The notes below the pieces were generated by a model. The model saw only the letters and a list, made by a program, of their open reading frames with translations. It was not told where the DNA came from and made no database searches. This document shows, in pieces, positions 55,252-62,633 of a stretch of DNA of 64,000 nt (positions are counted from its first letter, which is position 1; every line of letters begins with the position of its first letter). The position numbers and the translations under genes are program-made. The DNA is from a phage, in the sequence record PX104378.1, one strand, 5' to 3'.

Positions 55252-57050
55252 AACAATTAATTAATATCGGTAACGTTGTTGATGACGGTACAGGTGATTA
55301 TCTAAGAAAAGGTGGTCAAAAGATTAATGACAACTTTTCTGAACTTTACACTAAGCTGGGGGATGGTGATATCCCTCATGCATCCGGCGCGTGGAAAACT
55401 CACACACAACCAGTATTAAAACCAAATTTTGGTGATGCATGGGCGATTAATACAACTAACAACGCTGTTTCTGTTGAATTGCCTAAAGGAAGCGCGAGTG
55501 ATTATAATAAAACAATTAAACTTCGTGATGTTTGGCGCTCATGGGCTGCACATAACGTAACATTGAAGCCAGCACAAGGTGATACCATTAAGGGATCTCC
55601 AATCGACCGTGAGTTGTATAAAGATTTCATGGATGTTGAATTGGTTTATTGTGCGCCTGGACGTTGGGAATATGTCGAGAATAAACGAGTAGATACTATC
55701 ACCACTTCCGATTTAAGCACAGTCGCTAAGGAAGTTTATATTGCAACCGAAGGACAAACAGACTTCCCCAATGTGTTTGGTTCCAATACTTACAATATTC
55801 GAAATGTTGAAGTGTATTATCGCGGTAACTTGCTTTATTATGGCAAGGATTTAACCGATGATTCTAACTATGGTTCAATCGGTGAAAACGGTGATATTGT
55901 TCCGCTGGACGGTAAAAGCATTAAATTACGCTTCCCTTGTTCGGCTGGTGATACCATTCAAATCATCACTTATATGGACGGTATCGCATCATTCCGGTCA
56001 AGCTATATTACTCATACAATCCGCGTTTATGAAACAGGAATGACCACTTTGGAATCCATCCCCGGTGAAGTTTGGGTTGGTGAACTAGCTAATAAGAAAG
56101 AATTTACTAATGCTGAATTAGGCGTAAGTAAGCGAGATCTTATTAATCCAAATTCATTTGAATTGCTGATTAACGGTACACAAATGATTAAAGCGGGTGA
56201 TGCGGATTTACCTTCCTTTATTTGTGAAGGTGCTGACGGTGAAACGGAAGAAACCTGCGTACTTGCTGGCGGTCAATGGGTGGAATCTGGGGAAGATTAT
56301 TCATTGATGTTCGACGAAAACAGCGTGGTGACTGGTATTAAATTATCTAAAGCACTAGATAACCGAGACACTATCACAATTCGCTGGTTTAATAATGATA
56401 TCGGAACATTAATGGAATGGGACGGTGTAGGCGGTATTAAAGAAAAAGCAGATAAAATCTATCTTAATAACGAAGATGAAGTTACTCTGACAAATCGAAT
56501 TGAATATACCGATTTCCAGAATCCAAGCCAAGCGACTAAACGCCCAATGGAAGATTATACAGGTCGTGTGATGGATATCTATTCCATATTCGATATTTTC
56601 TATCCTATAGGCACAATTTATGAAAATGCGCATAACCCAGCTAACCCAGCGACCTATATGGGATTTGGTACATGGGTACGTTATGCAGAAAAAGAATTTT
56701 TAGTTGGTTGGTCTTCTGACGCAAGCGATCAAAACTTCGCACTAAACAACAACGATCTTGATACACATGGTCAACCTACACACACCGCAGGTGGTAACGG
56801 TGGTGATGTTGCATACCAGATCAAGAAAAATATGATTCCTGAATTACAGAGCGACGATCGAGTTCTTGTAAAAGATGATAACGGAAATATTATTATCGGT
56901 GGTTGTCAGGTAGACCCTGATGCAGTAGGTCCAGCGTTTACCAAATATCGCGAAGATAATGTTAAAGTTAATCAGGGAAATACCGATCCATCAATGATTG
57001 GTATTCTTCCTCCATACAGAACTGTCTATCGTTGGCTAAGGGTAGGTTAA
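55248..57050 (+). CDS. 10: gp10 baseplate wedge protein
   Basis: 600 aa (T4 602), N-terminal GDYLRKGGQKINDNF parallels gp9/gp10 shared motif; synteny. Confidence 0.9.
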   Translation: MKQLINIGNVVDDGTGDYLRKGGQKINDNFSELYTKLGDGDIPHASGAWKTHTQPVLKPNFGDAWAINTTNNAVSVELPKGSASDYNKTIKLRDVWRSWAAHNVTLKPAQGDTIKGSPIDRELYKDFMDVELVYCAPGRWEYVENKRVDTITTSDLSTVAKEVYIATEGQTDFPNVFGSNTYNIRNVEVYYRGNLLYYGKDLTDDSNYGSIGENGDIVPLDGKSIKLRFPCSAGDTIQIITYMDGIASFRSSYITHTIRVYETGMTTLESIPGEVWVGELANKKEFTNAELGVSKRDLINPNSFELLINGTQMIKAGDADLPSFICEGADGETEETCVLAGGQWVESGEDYSLMFDENSVVTGIKLSKALDNRDTITIRWFNNDIGTLMEWDGVGGIKEKADKIYLNNEDEVTLTNRIEYTDFQNPSQATKRPMEDYTGRVMDIYSIFDIFYPIGTIYENAHNPANPATYMGFGTWVRYAEKEFLVGWSSDASDQNFALNNNDLDTHGQPTHTAGGNGGDVAYQIKKNMIPELQSDDRVLVKDDNGNIIIGGCQVDPDAVGPAFTKYREDNVKVNQGNTDPSMIGILPPYRTVYRWLRVG

Positions 57051-57051
57051 T

Positions 57052-57696
57052 ATGATTTCGAAAACACGTTCAAAAGCTAGTGTATTTTCCAGCGATGCGG
57101 CGTTTATTTCATACGATCCAGGATCGAAAGATCCTGTTATCGGTGGTTCTCGTCCTATCGGTGGTGTTAATGTCGATCAATCAAGAAAAGGTTCCTATGT
57201 AAGCAACGTTCAATCTGCAATTGATGACCTTTATTCGTTGTCAATGATCCGAATTGGTGACGTTTTAGTAACAACAAACTCAACTGCACCACAATCGGCA
57301 GGGCAAATTGAAACATTAACATTTGCAGGAAGTGTTAATAATCAACATAACCCAGAAGCAAAGAAAGTATTAATTGATGTTTTGGGTTATCCATTTATTG
57401 TTGACGTTGGGTCTTCCGGCGTTTCTCTATGTGAGAAAGTAACGGAAAAATTTACCGAACTAATGAATAAAAACATTATGTTCAAAGAAGTAAAAAGAAA
57501 AGGAAGTAGCAACGATCAACTAGAAATTCATTATATCGATTCTCTTGAACATCCACCAACCGATATTAACAAGTACGGAATTACAATCACAGGAAATGTT
57601 GATTCCCCTGCCCGTGTTGGTTATGGTTCATGGTCTCGCATGGGTACAGAAGAGAAATTTGGAACTACCCTATATTATTTCAAACGTATTGCATAA
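57052..57696 (+). CDS. 11: gp11 baseplate wedge / short tail fibre attachment protein
   Basis: 214 aa (T4 219), synteny between 10 and 12. Confidence 0.9.
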   Translation: MISKTRSKASVFSSDAAFISYDPGSKDPVIGGSRPIGGVNVDQSRKGSYVSNVQSAIDDLYSLSMIRIGDVLVTTNSTAPQSAGQIETLTFAGSVNNQHNPEAKKVLIDVLGYPFIVDVGSSGVSLCEKVTEKFTELMNKNIMFKEVKRKGSSNDQLEIHYIDSLEHPPTDINKYGITITGNVDSPARVGYGSWSRMGTEEKFGTTLYYFKRIA

Positions 57697-57707
57697 GGTG
57701 ATGTATA

Positions 57708-59108
57708 ATGGCAAACAATACTATTAACCATGTAAAAGACGATGCTCAATACGTCAAGTTTAACCCTGTAAATGATTGGCCTCAAAGCATTACCAACGTA
57801 CAAGCGGCTTTAGCCGCTATTAATGGATTTGCCGTAAATGGATTACCGGACGCTACGGAAGATACAGCCGGGATCGCTGCAATCGCAACTCAGGAAGAAG
57901 TAAACGACGGTACTGTAGACAATAAGATCGTGACACCAAAAACATTGGCGGTTAAAATGTCACGCCCAGATGCTACAAAAGAAGTAAAGGGTATCACCCG
58001 ATTTGCCACAATGGAAGAATCGCTGCAAGAGAGCAACGAGAACATGGCAATCGGTCCAGATACACTAAACCATTACTTCACCACTAAAAAGGCGTCAGAG
58101 AGCGTTCAGGGGACTATTAAGATATGTTCTCTTGAGGCAGCAAAGATTGGCAGTGATGACACAATGGCAGTAACACCGAAAAAGATGCACACTGCCATTG
58201 CACAGATTGTACCCGGATTAATTCCAGATCAAAACACAGCAACCGAAAGCGCACAGGGTTTAGTTCAGTTAGCAACCAATGCGCAAGTTTTGCAAGGCCA
58301 GATTCGAGAAGGTTTTGCAATTAGCCCTTATGCATTTGCAAATGCTCGCGCCAATGAGAATCAGGCGGGTACTGTTAAGATCGCCAGCCAGTCACAGATG
58401 AATGCTGGTTCAGATGATACTGTAGTTGTTTCTGCTAAGAAGTTTGCAAGCACTAAGGCAACAACGTCTCAATACGGTATTGTTAAACTACGAGACACCG
58501 TAGGAAGTGAGGCTAACGCTGCACTATCAGCAAATGCTAAGGTTCTTCCTAGCACTGGCGGTACGGTAAGCGGAAACGTCTATAAAGGTTCTAACTCAGA
58601 CGGCAACCAGTTTGTTACTAAAAATGAATTAGCGAGTCACGCAATGCCAATTGGTGGTATTATCCTTTCTGGATTCAATGCTGATCGCGGTGACTTCATG
58701 ATCTGTAATGGTCGTTCACTGAATAAAAATCAATATCCGCAATTATTTTCTGCGATTGGTTATACCTTTGGTGGTTCAGGTAACAATTTTAACCTTCCTG
58801 ATATGCGCGGTTTAGTTGCTCGTGGTTGCGATCATGGAAGAAACCTTGATCCAGGCCGTCGATTTGGTTCTTATCAAGAAGACGCAATGCAGAGAATTAC
58901 TGGTAAATTCCCTGTAGCTGACCGCTGGCGCGGTTGGTATGGTGGCGCATTTACTGCACAGCGCGGTCAATGGAGCACGAACTATAAAAACGGTGGGGGT
59001 GATGATTGGGGTTCTACTGTTAACTTTGACTCAGGAAGATCCGTAAGAACGGCTAACGAGACTCGCGTCAAGAGTCTGGCATTAAACTATATCATAAGGG
59101 TGCGCTAA
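57708..59108 (+). CDS. 12: gp12 short tail fibre
   Basis: YVKFNPVNDWPQSITNVQAALAAIN..NGLPDAT and C-terminal NLPDMRGLVARG..LALNYIIRV match T4 gp12. Confidence 0.9.
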   Translation: MANNTINHVKDDAQYVKFNPVNDWPQSITNVQAALAAINGFAVNGLPDATEDTAGIAAIATQEEVNDGTVDNKIVTPKTLAVKMSRPDATKEVKGITRFATMEESLQESNENMAIGPDTLNHYFTTKKASESVQGTIKICSLEAAKIGSDDTMAVTPKKMHTAIAQIVPGLIPDQNTATESAQGLVQLATNAQVLQGQIREGFAISPYAFANARANENQAGTVKIASQSQMNAGSDDTVVVSAKKFASTKATTSQYGIVKLRDTVGSEANAALSANAKVLPSTGGTVSGNVYKGSNSDGNQFVTKNELASHAMPIGGIILSGFNADRGDFMICNGRSLNKNQYPQLFSAIGYTFGGSGNNFNLPDMRGLVARGCDHGRNLDPGRRFGSYQEDAMQRITGKFPVADRWRGWYGGAFTAQRGQWSTNYKNGGGDDWGSTVNFDSGRSVRTANETRVKSLALNYIIRVR

Positions 59109-60877
59109 TGATTGAACAATTAAACATCCACGAGATCCCAAATGTTGACGGTGTACCAGGCGAAGGACAGCACCGTATTAATTGGATCAAGAATGGCGAA
59201 TGTTTAAGCGCAGCAACGACACAGACTGGCAATGACGGGACGCTTAACCGCGCCCCGGTTGCAATTCAAGAAAACGTTGCACGCGTAAACGAAAACGCAA
59301 AATCAACCGTCGCTAAAGTTAACGAGGTTGTAACGGCGGTTAACGATATTAAAACAACTTTAGGGGCAATTTCTGACGGAAGTATCATTGATGTGGTTAA
59401 CCAGACTGTCGCAAAAGTTGAATCCGTCGAAGAGAACTTAGGAGAAACAGCAAAAACTCTGCAAACAACGGTAGACGCTGTATCAGAACTTAACGTCAAG
59501 ATTGGTGATCGCCCCGCTGCCGATCCGAGCACAAGAACAATCTATGATGACATTTCTTTCATCAAACAAGAAATGGGTTCTTATCCTAACTTTAATATTA
59601 ATGGTTCGCCTGATGCGGGTAATTCCGGTTCCGGCATCAAATACCGAGTTATTCAGAATACCGCAGCATTAAACGACCACGGTCGCCGAATCGTTCAGCT
59701 TGAAAACGACTGGCAAGATTCTGACGTAGGCGAGTTAACAAAACAAGTTAACAAAATGCGCAGTGAGATCGGCGACACGTCTCTTGCAACACAAGAAAAT
59801 GTGTATGTTCGTCTCCGCACCAACGCAAGAAACATTGCTAACTTATCAAACGAAGTTCTAGAAGTCAAGAAAGCAATTTTGTTTGATTCAATCCCTGATA
59901 TCGGGACTAAAGTCACTACGCTGGGAACTAATTATGAACGTCTAAACAATGATGTTAATGGTGTAGATTCCGGTATTCGTCCTCGTCTTCTGGCTGTCGA
60001 GAATAAGATCGGAACGCCTCAATCGGCTGGAAGCATTGATTATCGATTAACCAACACAGAGCGAGAATTTTTAGATCTTAAACAGGTTGTTGGTGTAAGC
60101 GGTGCTGACGGTTTGCGCGGTGAAGTTGCTCGACTTTCCAATGAGATTGGTACTGACAGCGATCGACATACTCTAGCCGGACGTCTTAAAGTTGTAGAAA
60201 ACACTCAGGGTCGGTTAGAAGCAAGCGTACAGGACATGGAACAGCTTGTCGGTGATCGCGAATCAGGTTTGACCGCTGGCGTTATTAAACTATCAAGTGA
60301 TATCTATGGTGATGATGGTTCAGAAGATCCATTTACTAAGAAAGGCGTGATTAAAATCGTCAAAGAGCTACAAACATCTAACGGAAACAAAGTAGATGAT
60401 GTACCTGATGACGGTTTCCATTATCTGCGTAAGCGCGGAGAATGGGTGCAAGTTGCATATGCTGCTGGAGCATTTAAAAATACCGCAGATATTACGGTTG
60501 AACTTAACGAACAGGATGTTTATAAACCGATTCCGCTTAACGACATGGCGGCAGAAGTTAATGTGCGTCAAATGGTGAAAAGTGAATCTGTTGTTACCGT
60601 TCAGGACAAAGGTTTATTCCGTTGTGTATTCCGTTGCGCTGTACACGCTCAACATAATGCAACATTCATTGTTGCGATTTTCAAAAATGGACAGATGGTA
60701 TATGAAGCGAAAAATGGTCATTACGGCACAGACGAATTGATCAGCTATTCTACCAGTGCTTTCCTAAATATTGAAAAGGGCGACCAGATTAACATCCGTA
60801 TTAAAGGTGTTTCTCAGGAAGCAGTGGCACAACCAGCACAAATTAAAGAGTTCCTCTTTGGGATTTCTCCGGTATAA
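59108..60877 (+). CDS. wac: fibritin (wac) with additional C-terminal domain
   Basis: N-terminus IPNVDGVPGEGQHRINWIKNGE like T4 wac; coiled-coil body; foldon-like DDGFHYLRKRGEWVQV at ~res 435-450 followed by ~138 extra residues. Confidence 0.85.
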   Translation: MIEQLNIHEIPNVDGVPGEGQHRINWIKNGECLSAATTQTGNDGTLNRAPVAIQENVARVNENAKSTVAKVNEVVTAVNDIKTTLGAISDGSIIDVVNQTVAKVESVEENLGETAKTLQTTVDAVSELNVKIGDRPAADPSTRTIYDDISFIKQEMGSYPNFNINGSPDAGNSGSGIKYRVIQNTAALNDHGRRIVQLENDWQDSDVGELTKQVNKMRSEIGDTSLATQENVYVRLRTNARNIANLSNEVLEVKKAILFDSIPDIGTKVTTLGTNYERLNNDVNGVDSGIRPRLLAVENKIGTPQSAGSIDYRLTNTEREFLDLKQVVGVSGADGLRGEVARLSNEIGTDSDRHTLAGRLKVVENTQGRLEASVQDMEQLVGDRESGLTAGVIKLSSDIYGDDGSEDPFTKKGVIKIVKELQTSNGNKVDDVPDDGFHYLRKRGEWVQVAYAAGAFKNTADITVELNEQDVYKPIPLNDMAAEVNVRQMVKSESVVTVQDKGLFRCVFRCAVHAQHNATFIVAIFKNGQMVYEAKNGHYGTDELISYSTSAFLNIEKGDQINIRIKGVSQEAVAQPAQIKEFLFGISPV

Positions 60878-60883
60878 GAAATT

Positions 60884-60908
60884 AAAGGGGCGTTAAGCCC
60901 CTTTTTCG
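60884..60908 (+). terminator. intrinsic terminator after wac
   Basis: Hairpin AAAGGGGC(gttaa)GCCCCTTT followed by T-run. Confidence 0.65.
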
Positions 60909-60923
60909 TTTATAGGTGATATT

Positions 60924-61856
60924 ATGTCAGGATATGTAACCAATAACCCAAGAGAATTAAAAGACGCTATTCTGCGTCGTTTAGGCGCACCAGTAATTAA
61001 CGTAGAAGTAACAGAAGACCAGATTTACGATTGTATTCAGAGAGCACTAGAACTCTATGGGGAATATCATTTCGATGGTGTGAATAAAGGATATAAAGTA
61101 TTTCGTGTTAGTGCAGAGCAAGCGCAACATGGGGTATTTGATTTAAGCGATTCTGGAGTATTTGCAGTAACTAAAATAATTCGAACAAACGTAGGTAGCG
61201 CGGCTACGATGGATGGTACTGCCGTTTATCCGTGGTTTACCGACTTTCTGTTGGGTTTAGCGGGTGTAAATGGCGGTTTAGGATCTGGCTGTAGTAAATT
61301 TTATGGTCCAAATGCAATGGGCGGTGATCTAGGATATTTCGAACAGCTTATGAGCTATCGAGCCACTATGCAAAATATGCTCAATCCGCTGCCAGATTAT
61401 TGGTATAACAGCGCAAACGGACAACTTAAGATTACAGGAAACTTCCGAGAAGGTGATCTCATTGTTGTTGAATTATATGTTAAAAGCTATGTAGATGTTC
61501 CTGATATGATCGGCGCGGTTGCTGGCTATGCCCATGCAGGAGGATGTTCTACCGCTGGCGGGATTAGCGCCGTTTATGATAATCCAACTGCTGGTTTAAG
61601 CGGGATTGTTGCTGGCATGGGACCGATCAGTGAGAACAAGCAGGGCGCATATAATAACCGTTGGGTTAAAGACATGGCAACCGCTTTCACTAAGGAGGTG
61701 TGGGGGTCAATCATGGCTAAACATCAAGGTCTGCAATTACCCGGTGGTGTCACTGTTGATGGTATCCGAATCATTGAAGAAGCACGCGCCGACATTGAGA
61801 AATTGCGACAAGAACTAGAATTATTAGATCCTCCGTTCGGCATCCTCATGATTTGA
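60924..61856 (+). CDS. 13: gp13 neck protein
   Basis: Near-identical N-terminus to T4 gp13 ([42 protein letters not shown]) and C-terminus LDPPFGILM. Confidence 0.95.
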
Positions 61857-61892
61857 TTTATTGGGGGAGTATTCCCCCATTTGGAGTAACAT

Positions 61893-62633
61893 ATGTTTAA
61901 CACCACTCTTTTTGCTCGCCTTGAATCGCAAAAGGATTATGAGAATACACGACAAACAGAGATTCTCAATCCTTATGTGAACTTTCACAAATATACAAAT
62001 ACTCAGACGTTAGCCGACGTTATGGTCGCAGAAGCTATCCAGATGAGAGGTGTAGAATTATATTACATCCCTCGTGAATTTGTCAAGCCAGATATGATCT
62101 TTGGTGAAGATGTTCAAAGCAAATTCACTAAAGCATGGAAATTTGCGGCTTATATTAACTCGTTTGATGGTTATGAAGGTGCGGGTAATTTCTTCTCTAG
62201 TTTCGGGTATCAAGCTAATGATGAATTAACTTTTACGGTTAACCCCAACCTATTCAAGCATCAAGTAGATGATCAAGAGCCAAAATCAGGTGACTTGATT
62301 TATATTCCAATGAGTAATGATCTCTTTGAAATTAATTACGTCGAGCCATATCAGCCGTTTTTTCAGGCTGGAAAAAATGCCATGCGTAAAATTATTGCAG
62401 AGAAATTCGTGTATAGCGGCGAGGAATTGCGACCAGAATTACAGCGTAATGATGGAATTAATGTTGATGAGTTCGCAGATCTGGATCTTGCACCGATCAC
62501 TAATCTGGACGGGTTAACAGATATCAACTTAGATCAGTACAAAGAAGATAAGCAATTCAGAAGCGAAGGACAAGATTTTATTGATCCGTTTGATCCTATT
62601 AATGGCAAGGGTTCACCTTTCGCCGATTTTTGA
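61893..62633 (+). CDS. 14: gp14 neck protein
   Basis: [35 protein letters not shown] matches T4 gp14. Confidence 0.95.

Follow-up and report, generated by a model that had tools for sequence, protein, structure and literature searches.

The RB49-type fibritin, with its expanded C-terminal domain, is said to have been described by Letarov in 2005. This domain has since been treated in the literature (Letarov & Krisch 2013), where it figures among some eight named types of fibritin (PMC3797505), and it has been cited as being "unrelated to T4 Wac" (PMC9569957). Unlike T4 fibritin, RB49 fibritin is reported to form trimers only with the help of sequences in the "expanded C-terminal domain", its foldon alone not being sufficient (PMC3797505). 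Since the gene considered here is the RB49 wac gene in a close relative, a whisker of this type with a C-terminal extension is already known, and the gain in annotation is small. A full-text literature search (Letarov 2005 lay outside it) turned up neither an assignment of RB49-type fibritin to the C1q/TNF/BclA fold nor the structure of an RB49-like virion.

The window, to which all coordinates below refer, is the whole stretch of phage DNA that was analysed, 64,000 nucleotides of sequence record PX104378.1. On sequence grounds the open reading frame at 59108-60877 is the wac (fibritin) gene of an RB49-like coliphage, a Krischvirus. At the nucleotide level it shares 99.0% identity with that of phage Brandy and 97.6% with that of RB49, and 58 records match it over its full length (megablast). 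Its product aligns with T4 fibritin at E 9e-50 (aa 6-430 against T4 residues 5-434, phmmer) and matches PHROG 1056, "fibritin neck whisker", at E 1e-186. The RB49 counterpart is a 1770-nt gene annotated "wac, fibritin neck whiskers" within the order 10-11-12-wac-13-14-15; the placement between genes 12 and 13 is the same here, in RB49 and in seven other Krischvirus genomes, with genes for gp10 (600 aa), gp11 (214 aa) and gp12 (466 aa) on the 5' side and those for gp13, gp14 and gp15 on the 3' side. The features of the locus are as follows.

59108..60877, + strand: wac (fibritin, neck whisker or collar fibre), open reading frame of 589 aa plus stop
59108..59257, + strand: N-terminal neck-binding domain, aa 1-50, from alignment with T4 fibritin and conservation
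59258..60388, + strand: segmented coiled-coil shaft, aa 51-427, collinear with that of T4 fibritin
60173..60250, + strand: equivalent of T4 helix alpha11 (T4 residues 361-386), aa 356-381, by alignment only
60389..60463, + strand: foldon, aa 428-452, as judged from Pfam Fibritin_C, conserved residues and an AF2 hairpin
60464..60874, + strand: predicted C1q/TNF/BclA-like jelly-roll head, C-terminal, aa 453-589
60884..60912, + strand: intrinsic-terminator-like hairpin and T-run, directly 3' of the wac stop and before gene 13
60924-61856: gene 13

The strong hairpin between wac and gene 13 has an 8-bp stem with five GC pairs and a 5-nt loop, followed by TTCGTTTATA. It reads AAAGGGGC-GTTAA-GCCCCTTT plus the T-run and lies 12 nt ahead of the gene 13 ribosome-binding region. 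Genes 13, 14 and 15 are contiguous in the window, with no homing-endonuclease insert at 61856-61893 or from 62633. Among relatives, homing-endonuclease genes are found after gene 13 in ECD7 (segC), G5211 and MIZ4 and after gene 14 in JSE, while KFS-EC has an unnamed ORF at the post-gene-13 site where MIZ4 has its endonuclease gene.

The N-terminal domain is of familiar type, with aa 7-84 aligning to the T4 fibritin fragments 1ox3 and 2ibl (E about 5e-15, phmmer) and many invariant columns in an alignment of 17 fibritins. Beyond the shaft, the motif DDGFHYLRKRGEWVQV (aa 434-449, nt 60407-60454) displays the foldon signature P-x-D-G-x-x-Y-[VL]-R-K-x-G-E-W-V, which matches the end of the Pfam Fibritin_C profile (PF07921). 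That profile covers aa 368-451 over positions 2-92 of 93 at E 3.8e-29, and its last 25 positions alone score 26.3 bits (E 8.6e-6) against a curated cut-off of 21; because the match is both full-length and above the cut-off for the foldon part by itself, it is not due to chance. In phmmer, aa 425-449 align both with residues 456-480 of T4 fibritin and with foldon tags carried by PDB constructs. With the foldon numbered so that T4 residue n is residue n-30 here (phmmer alignment), D435, Y439, R441 and W446 correspond to T4 D465, Y469, R471 and W476, and all four are invariant or nearly so in the 17 fibritins, down to about 25-30% identity. Entropy in the foldon core is 0.25, the minimum of the protein, compared with 0.70 overall (13 RB49-like fibritins), and AF2 places a beta-hairpin here, with strands at aa 438-442 and 445-449. 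The segment at aa 428-452 is thus a genuine T4-type foldon.

It is highly improbable that the motif is a chance or vestigial resemblance, with only the terminal domain trimerising. C1q/TNF domains, the class to which the terminal domain is assigned below, are generally known to trimerise autonomously, and the confidence of the AF2 monomer in the foldon is only moderate (pLDDT 59-78), although low monomer confidence is expected because a foldon is stable only as a trimer. RB49 fibritin is also reported not to fold if it has only the foldon motif to rely on (PMC3797505), which speaks for this reading. Against this stand the end-to-end Fibritin_C match, the retention of the four residues in distant fibritins and a dN/dS of 0.07 in what is the most conserved segment of the fibritin. 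The earlier note had allowed that its foldon-like match might prove spurious; the profile match, invariant residues and lowest entropy all indicate that it is not.

Unlike in T4, the foldon is not at the extreme C-terminus. The motif is followed by 140 residues, about 132 of them past the position aligned with the T4 C-terminus, and the foldon as delimited here by a domain of 137 residues. The earlier note had correctly recognized this arrangement of a foldon-like segment and an extra region of ~138 residues, which it placed at 60459-60877; the end is right, being the last base of the TAA stop, and the start falls on the second base of codon 451, one base out of frame. Internal foldons are also seen in the metagenomic fibritins P0021 (1006 aa) and P0022 (736 aa), where foldon-like motifs such as YVRKSENW, YGRKDGAW, YARRDGMWE and YGRKDNKW number two to six and lie amid beta-rich segments; an internal foldon with further domains after it is therefore a recurring design.

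The C-terminal region was modelled with AF2 as a monomer, using aa 425-589 aligned with 13 homologues. The model has a mean pLDDT of 87.8 and a pTM of 0.80, with values above 90 for nearly all residues past aa 453. The head is predicted to be all-beta except for one short helix, in agreement with the beta-strand-rich character ascribed to this region earlier, and to form a compact 10-stranded jelly-roll whose first strand is separated from the foldon hairpin by only ~3 residues. Its structural relatives include Caprin-2 C1q (score 15.0), Ectodysplasin (14.7), BclA (14.5), TWEAK (14.3) and ExsFA (14.2), followed by C1q, cerebellin and collagen VIII NC1 (13.5-13.9), and the alignments to the C1q/TNF/BclA relatives extend over 115-125 residues at 2.0-2.7 A. 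Relatives from phages are the tail fibre of cyanophage A4 (14.5), the short tail fibre CBD of cyanophage A-1(L) (13.8), PRD1 P5 (12.8), the TM4 gp23 receptor-binding domain (12.3) and the lactococcal phage 1358 RBP (11.1). In a Foldseek search of BFVD the top match was a 594-aa fibritin-like protein, followed by many phage proteins annotated with C1q domains or collagen repeats. One further BFVD match, A0A1J0MHA5 of Klebsiella phage KPV15, is a stand-alone protein of 159 aa that spans the foldon-plus-head model at 24% identity and a TM of 0.75-0.78. KPV15 is of the KP15/RB43 type, a group whose fibritin is described as having Ig-like domains instead, and A0A1J0MHA5 may be a small protein of its own that resembles a whisker tip.

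Sequence profiles point in the same direction at lower strength. BclA_C matches the head with 21.8 bits (E 1.8e-4, below the gathering threshold of 38 bits) and C1q with 18.5 bits (E 2.4e-3, below the threshold of 23.7 bits). BclA_C is found at E <= 0.01 in five of 14 homologues, with a best E of 3.9e-7, and one homologue, P0018, bears a precomputed PF18573 (BclA_C) hit. A profile of foldon plus head searched against PDB sequences recovered foldon-tagged constructs only, without any C1q or BclA chain. We prefer to call the head C1q/TNF-like by predicted fold, and not a sequence-defined member of PF00386 or PF18573. An intramolecular chaperone of the Peptidase_S74 type was considered and set aside, there being no Pfam match and the fold being C1q-like, not S74-like. 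The fold is readily obtained from public predictors together with precomputed Pfam hits.

The head is found at identical length in all 58-59 Krischvirus records, with 74-99% identity (tblastn), and is 94% identical in amino acids to that of RB49. Outside the genus, tblastn detects it at 25-33% identity in Serratia phages WSPA, 4S, PS2, Muldoon and SP1 and in Cronobacter phage vB_Cdu_VP8, always inside wac genes, and the WSPA fibritin has the same coil-foldon-head layout. A comparison with the wac genes of related phages, as the earlier note had advised, thus returns the same domain in Krischvirus, Serratia and Cronobacter fibritins. An exhaustive phmmer search of 1.84 billion representative proteins with the head gave nothing credible beyond fibritins and no cellular donor family; the matches P0023-25 were judged spurious, these being highly repetitive proteins. 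A word-indexed search with the head by itself returned two database gene calls only, P0001 and P0002, each of 110 aa and beginning at the internal Met480 of the head (window 60545). An internal start there was rejected, since no Shine-Dalgarno sequence precedes that ATG, and both are most likely fragments from broken assemblies.

Selection was estimated as dN/dS (Nei-Gojobori) from nine Krischvirus wac genes, all of 1770 nt and free of indels. The ratio is 0.05 in the N-terminal domain, the minimum of the protein, 0.09 in the shaft, 0.07 in the foldon and 0.16 in the head. With its value of 0.16 the head is a functional domain under constraint, evolving at a somewhat higher rate than the other parts of the fibritin. 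By entropy, conservation is very high in the C-terminal half of the head (aa 541-589), and its variation peaks at aa 461-500. Constant length in Krischvirus, purifying selection and high model confidence together mark the extra region as a genuine, conserved domain.

Heads of the C1q/TNF type are obligate trimers. They cap trimeric stalks at the C-terminus, and there they start the folding of the stalk and set its register, as in C1q, collagen VIII and X, adiponectin and BclA. Attachment to a trimeric coiled coil and a foldon implies that the head of the present protein would be trimeric as well. Three heads would then pack around the fibre axis to give a globular knob at the whisker tip, foldon and knob would act jointly as the C-terminal nucleus of trimerisation and registration, and the coiled coil would zip from that nucleus toward the N-terminus; the knob would probably double as an interaction surface. 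Such a nucleus would explain why RB49 fibritin depends on its expanded C-terminal domain. We regard a folding nucleus of foldon plus knob as the best-supported mechanism, in which we infer the trimer packing, and we give a probability of roughly 0.6 to the complete reading, that RB49-type fibritin ends in a foldon and a trimeric C1q/TNF-like knob which forms the folding nucleus and probably also an interaction surface.

What such a surface would contact is the weakest step of this proposal. The earlier note had suggested a distal binding or sensing domain; the domain stands, and binding of host glycans and sensing survive only as alternatives of low probability, taken up below. Co-occurrence of the head with the RB49-type extension of gp36 makes the long tail fibre of the phage itself, close to the knee, the more likely candidate partner. 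RB49 gp36 has 496 aa and that of T4 221 aa, with only aa 1-171 of the former common to T4-like phages. Its C-terminal 225 aa are also present in gp36 of Krischvirus, Serratia phages 4S, Muldoon and PS2 and Cronobacter VP8, and the groups of phages with this region are the groups with the head. Covariance of wac and gene 36 was reportedly noted by Letarov in 2005 and is reproduced here with current genomes. Across genera this co-occurrence may simply be shared ancestry, and at fine scale the two regions are not co-inherited, ECD7 having a gp36 region identical to that of RB49 and a largely JSE-type head. In RB49 gene 36 (L003 25157-26647), the product repeats T4-gp36-like elements past aa 171, with GDTMTG/GDIMEG motifs at ~166, ~256 and ~392 and NKP..AD motifs at ~233 and ~475, so that the extension looks like added fibre modules and not like one foreign globular domain.

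For T4, the whisker is reported to touch the long tail fibre, when this is retracted, through helix alpha11 of its coiled coil, which meets the gp35 kneecap, and not through its tip (10.64898/2026.03.06.709160). A segment aligned with alpha11 is present here (aa 356-381), and RB49 gp35 is collinear with T4 gp35 across the domain of that contact (26% identity, E 1e-26); the gp35-alpha11 contact could therefore persist, and the head may not be needed for it.

The most variable stretch of the fibritin is the coiled coil and loop at the end of the shaft, aa 383-425 (window 60254-60382), where entropy is 1.10 compared with 0.70 overall; this stretch is flanked on one side by the conserved equivalent of alpha11 and on the other by the foldon, itself highly conserved, and within gene nt 1201-1260 the RB49-type and JSE alleles are only ~42-45% identical. 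On a larger scale, a block of ~5.3 kb at about 55600-60850 of the window is only 60-85% identical in nucleotides to JSE. It holds the C-terminal part of gp10, gp11, gp12 and wac and ends within the last ~30 nt of wac, and its flanks (gp9 with the N-terminal part of gp10, and gp13 onward) are 98-100% identical to JSE. The block, at 55.6-60.85 kb, looks like an allelic cassette or a single import linking the short-tail-fibre genes with fibritin. The ECD7 wac gene (L004 148-1917) is itself a recombinant, 98-100% RB49-like over nt 1-1440 and 98-100% JSE-like over nt 1441-1740, with the breakpoint inside the head at about aa 470-480, the larger part of the head having been swapped between lineages; the ECD7 head is 82% identical to that of RB49 and 94% to that of JSE, and its gp36 C-terminal region is 100% identical to that of RB49.

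The position of wac at the 3' end of this diverged block could be taken to mean that the head is an accessory adhesin or lectin that binds host glycans (LPS, O-antigen or capsule) for reversible adsorption or host sensing, the more so as many of its structural relatives are receptor-binding heads or lectins and as, according to a 2026 preprint, both gp12 and the adjoining fibritin gene hold k-mers specific to LPS sugars. Linkage to gp12, or import of the block in one piece, accounts equally well, however, for the k-mer signal and the divergence of the block. A dN/dS of 0.16 still amounts to clear purifying selection, the head showed no hypervariable segments, its C-terminal half is among the best conserved parts of the fibritin, and neither Pfam nor the PDB profile search detects a lectin or carbohydrate-binding family; T4 whiskers, moreover, have no known receptor role. 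We consider this role unlikely and rate the long tail fibre above it, keeping both as candidate partners.

Somewhat less likely still is a stronger form, in which the knob would be a ligand-binding module that turns the whiskers into a second, head-proximal adhesin system for host-surface recognition or sensing in Krischvirus, Muldoonvirus-type Serratia phages and a Cronobacter phage; the exchange of the ECD7 head would under that reading reflect selection for host adaptation. More doubtful again is an environmental sensor, such as an ion- or pH-dependent switch of conformation or binding at the whisker tip that tunes retraction of the long tail fibres. Many C1q heads are generally known to bind Ca2+ on the trimer axis, which would suit a switch of this kind. 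The T4 whisker-fibre system does respond to its environment (PMC3797505; 10.64898/2026.03.06.709160), but the salt sensitivity of T4 has been ascribed to the charged gp35-alpha11 interface (10.64898/2026.03.06.709160), which RB49 could in principle retain.

Two modest points go beyond the published accounts consulted. As the foldon is retained and is best conserved, the C-terminus is better thought of as "foldon plus add-on" than as "replaced", and the C1q/TNF/BclA class of the predicted head would give a structural reason for its need in trimerisation as well as a candidate binding head. Were the head to bind host glycans, host recognition by T4-like phages would extend to the neck whiskers, which would be relevant to the engineering and prediction of host range in Krischvirus therapeutic phages.

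Among known systems, RB49 gpwac (AAP04366.2) is the same gene, with 589 aa and identical neighbours, and nothing substantive differs. T4 fibritin (PDB 1aa0, 1avy, 2bsg, 3j2o) is homologous and collinear in N-terminal domain, shaft and foldon and is encoded at the same genomic position, and 10 of the 18 residues of the T4 foldon motif (1rfo) are identical here. T4 fibritin stops a few residues past the foldon, whereas here a globular head of 137 aa continues, and the T4 foldon suffices for trimerisation, whereas that of RB49 reportedly does not (PMC3797505). JS98-type and other multi-foldon fibritins likewise have an internal foldon, JS98 with two (PMC3797505); here a single foldon is followed by a C1q-like head in place of a spacer and second foldon. 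The C1q/TNF heads of C1q, Caprin-2, cerebellin, collagen VIII NC1, adiponectin, EDA and the Bacillus proteins BclA and ExsFA are carried on trimeric stalks; the stalk of the whisker is an alpha-helical coiled coil plus foldon, not collagen, and heads of the superfamily share 8-20% sequence identity with the present one. The heads of A-1(L), A4, PRD1 P5, TM4 gp23, the 1358 RBP and the Sf6 needle knob are of the same fold class, and each likewise caps a trimeric phage fibre at its far end; those heads bind host receptors and belong to tail or vertex fibres, whereas the candidate head described here is on a neck whisker.
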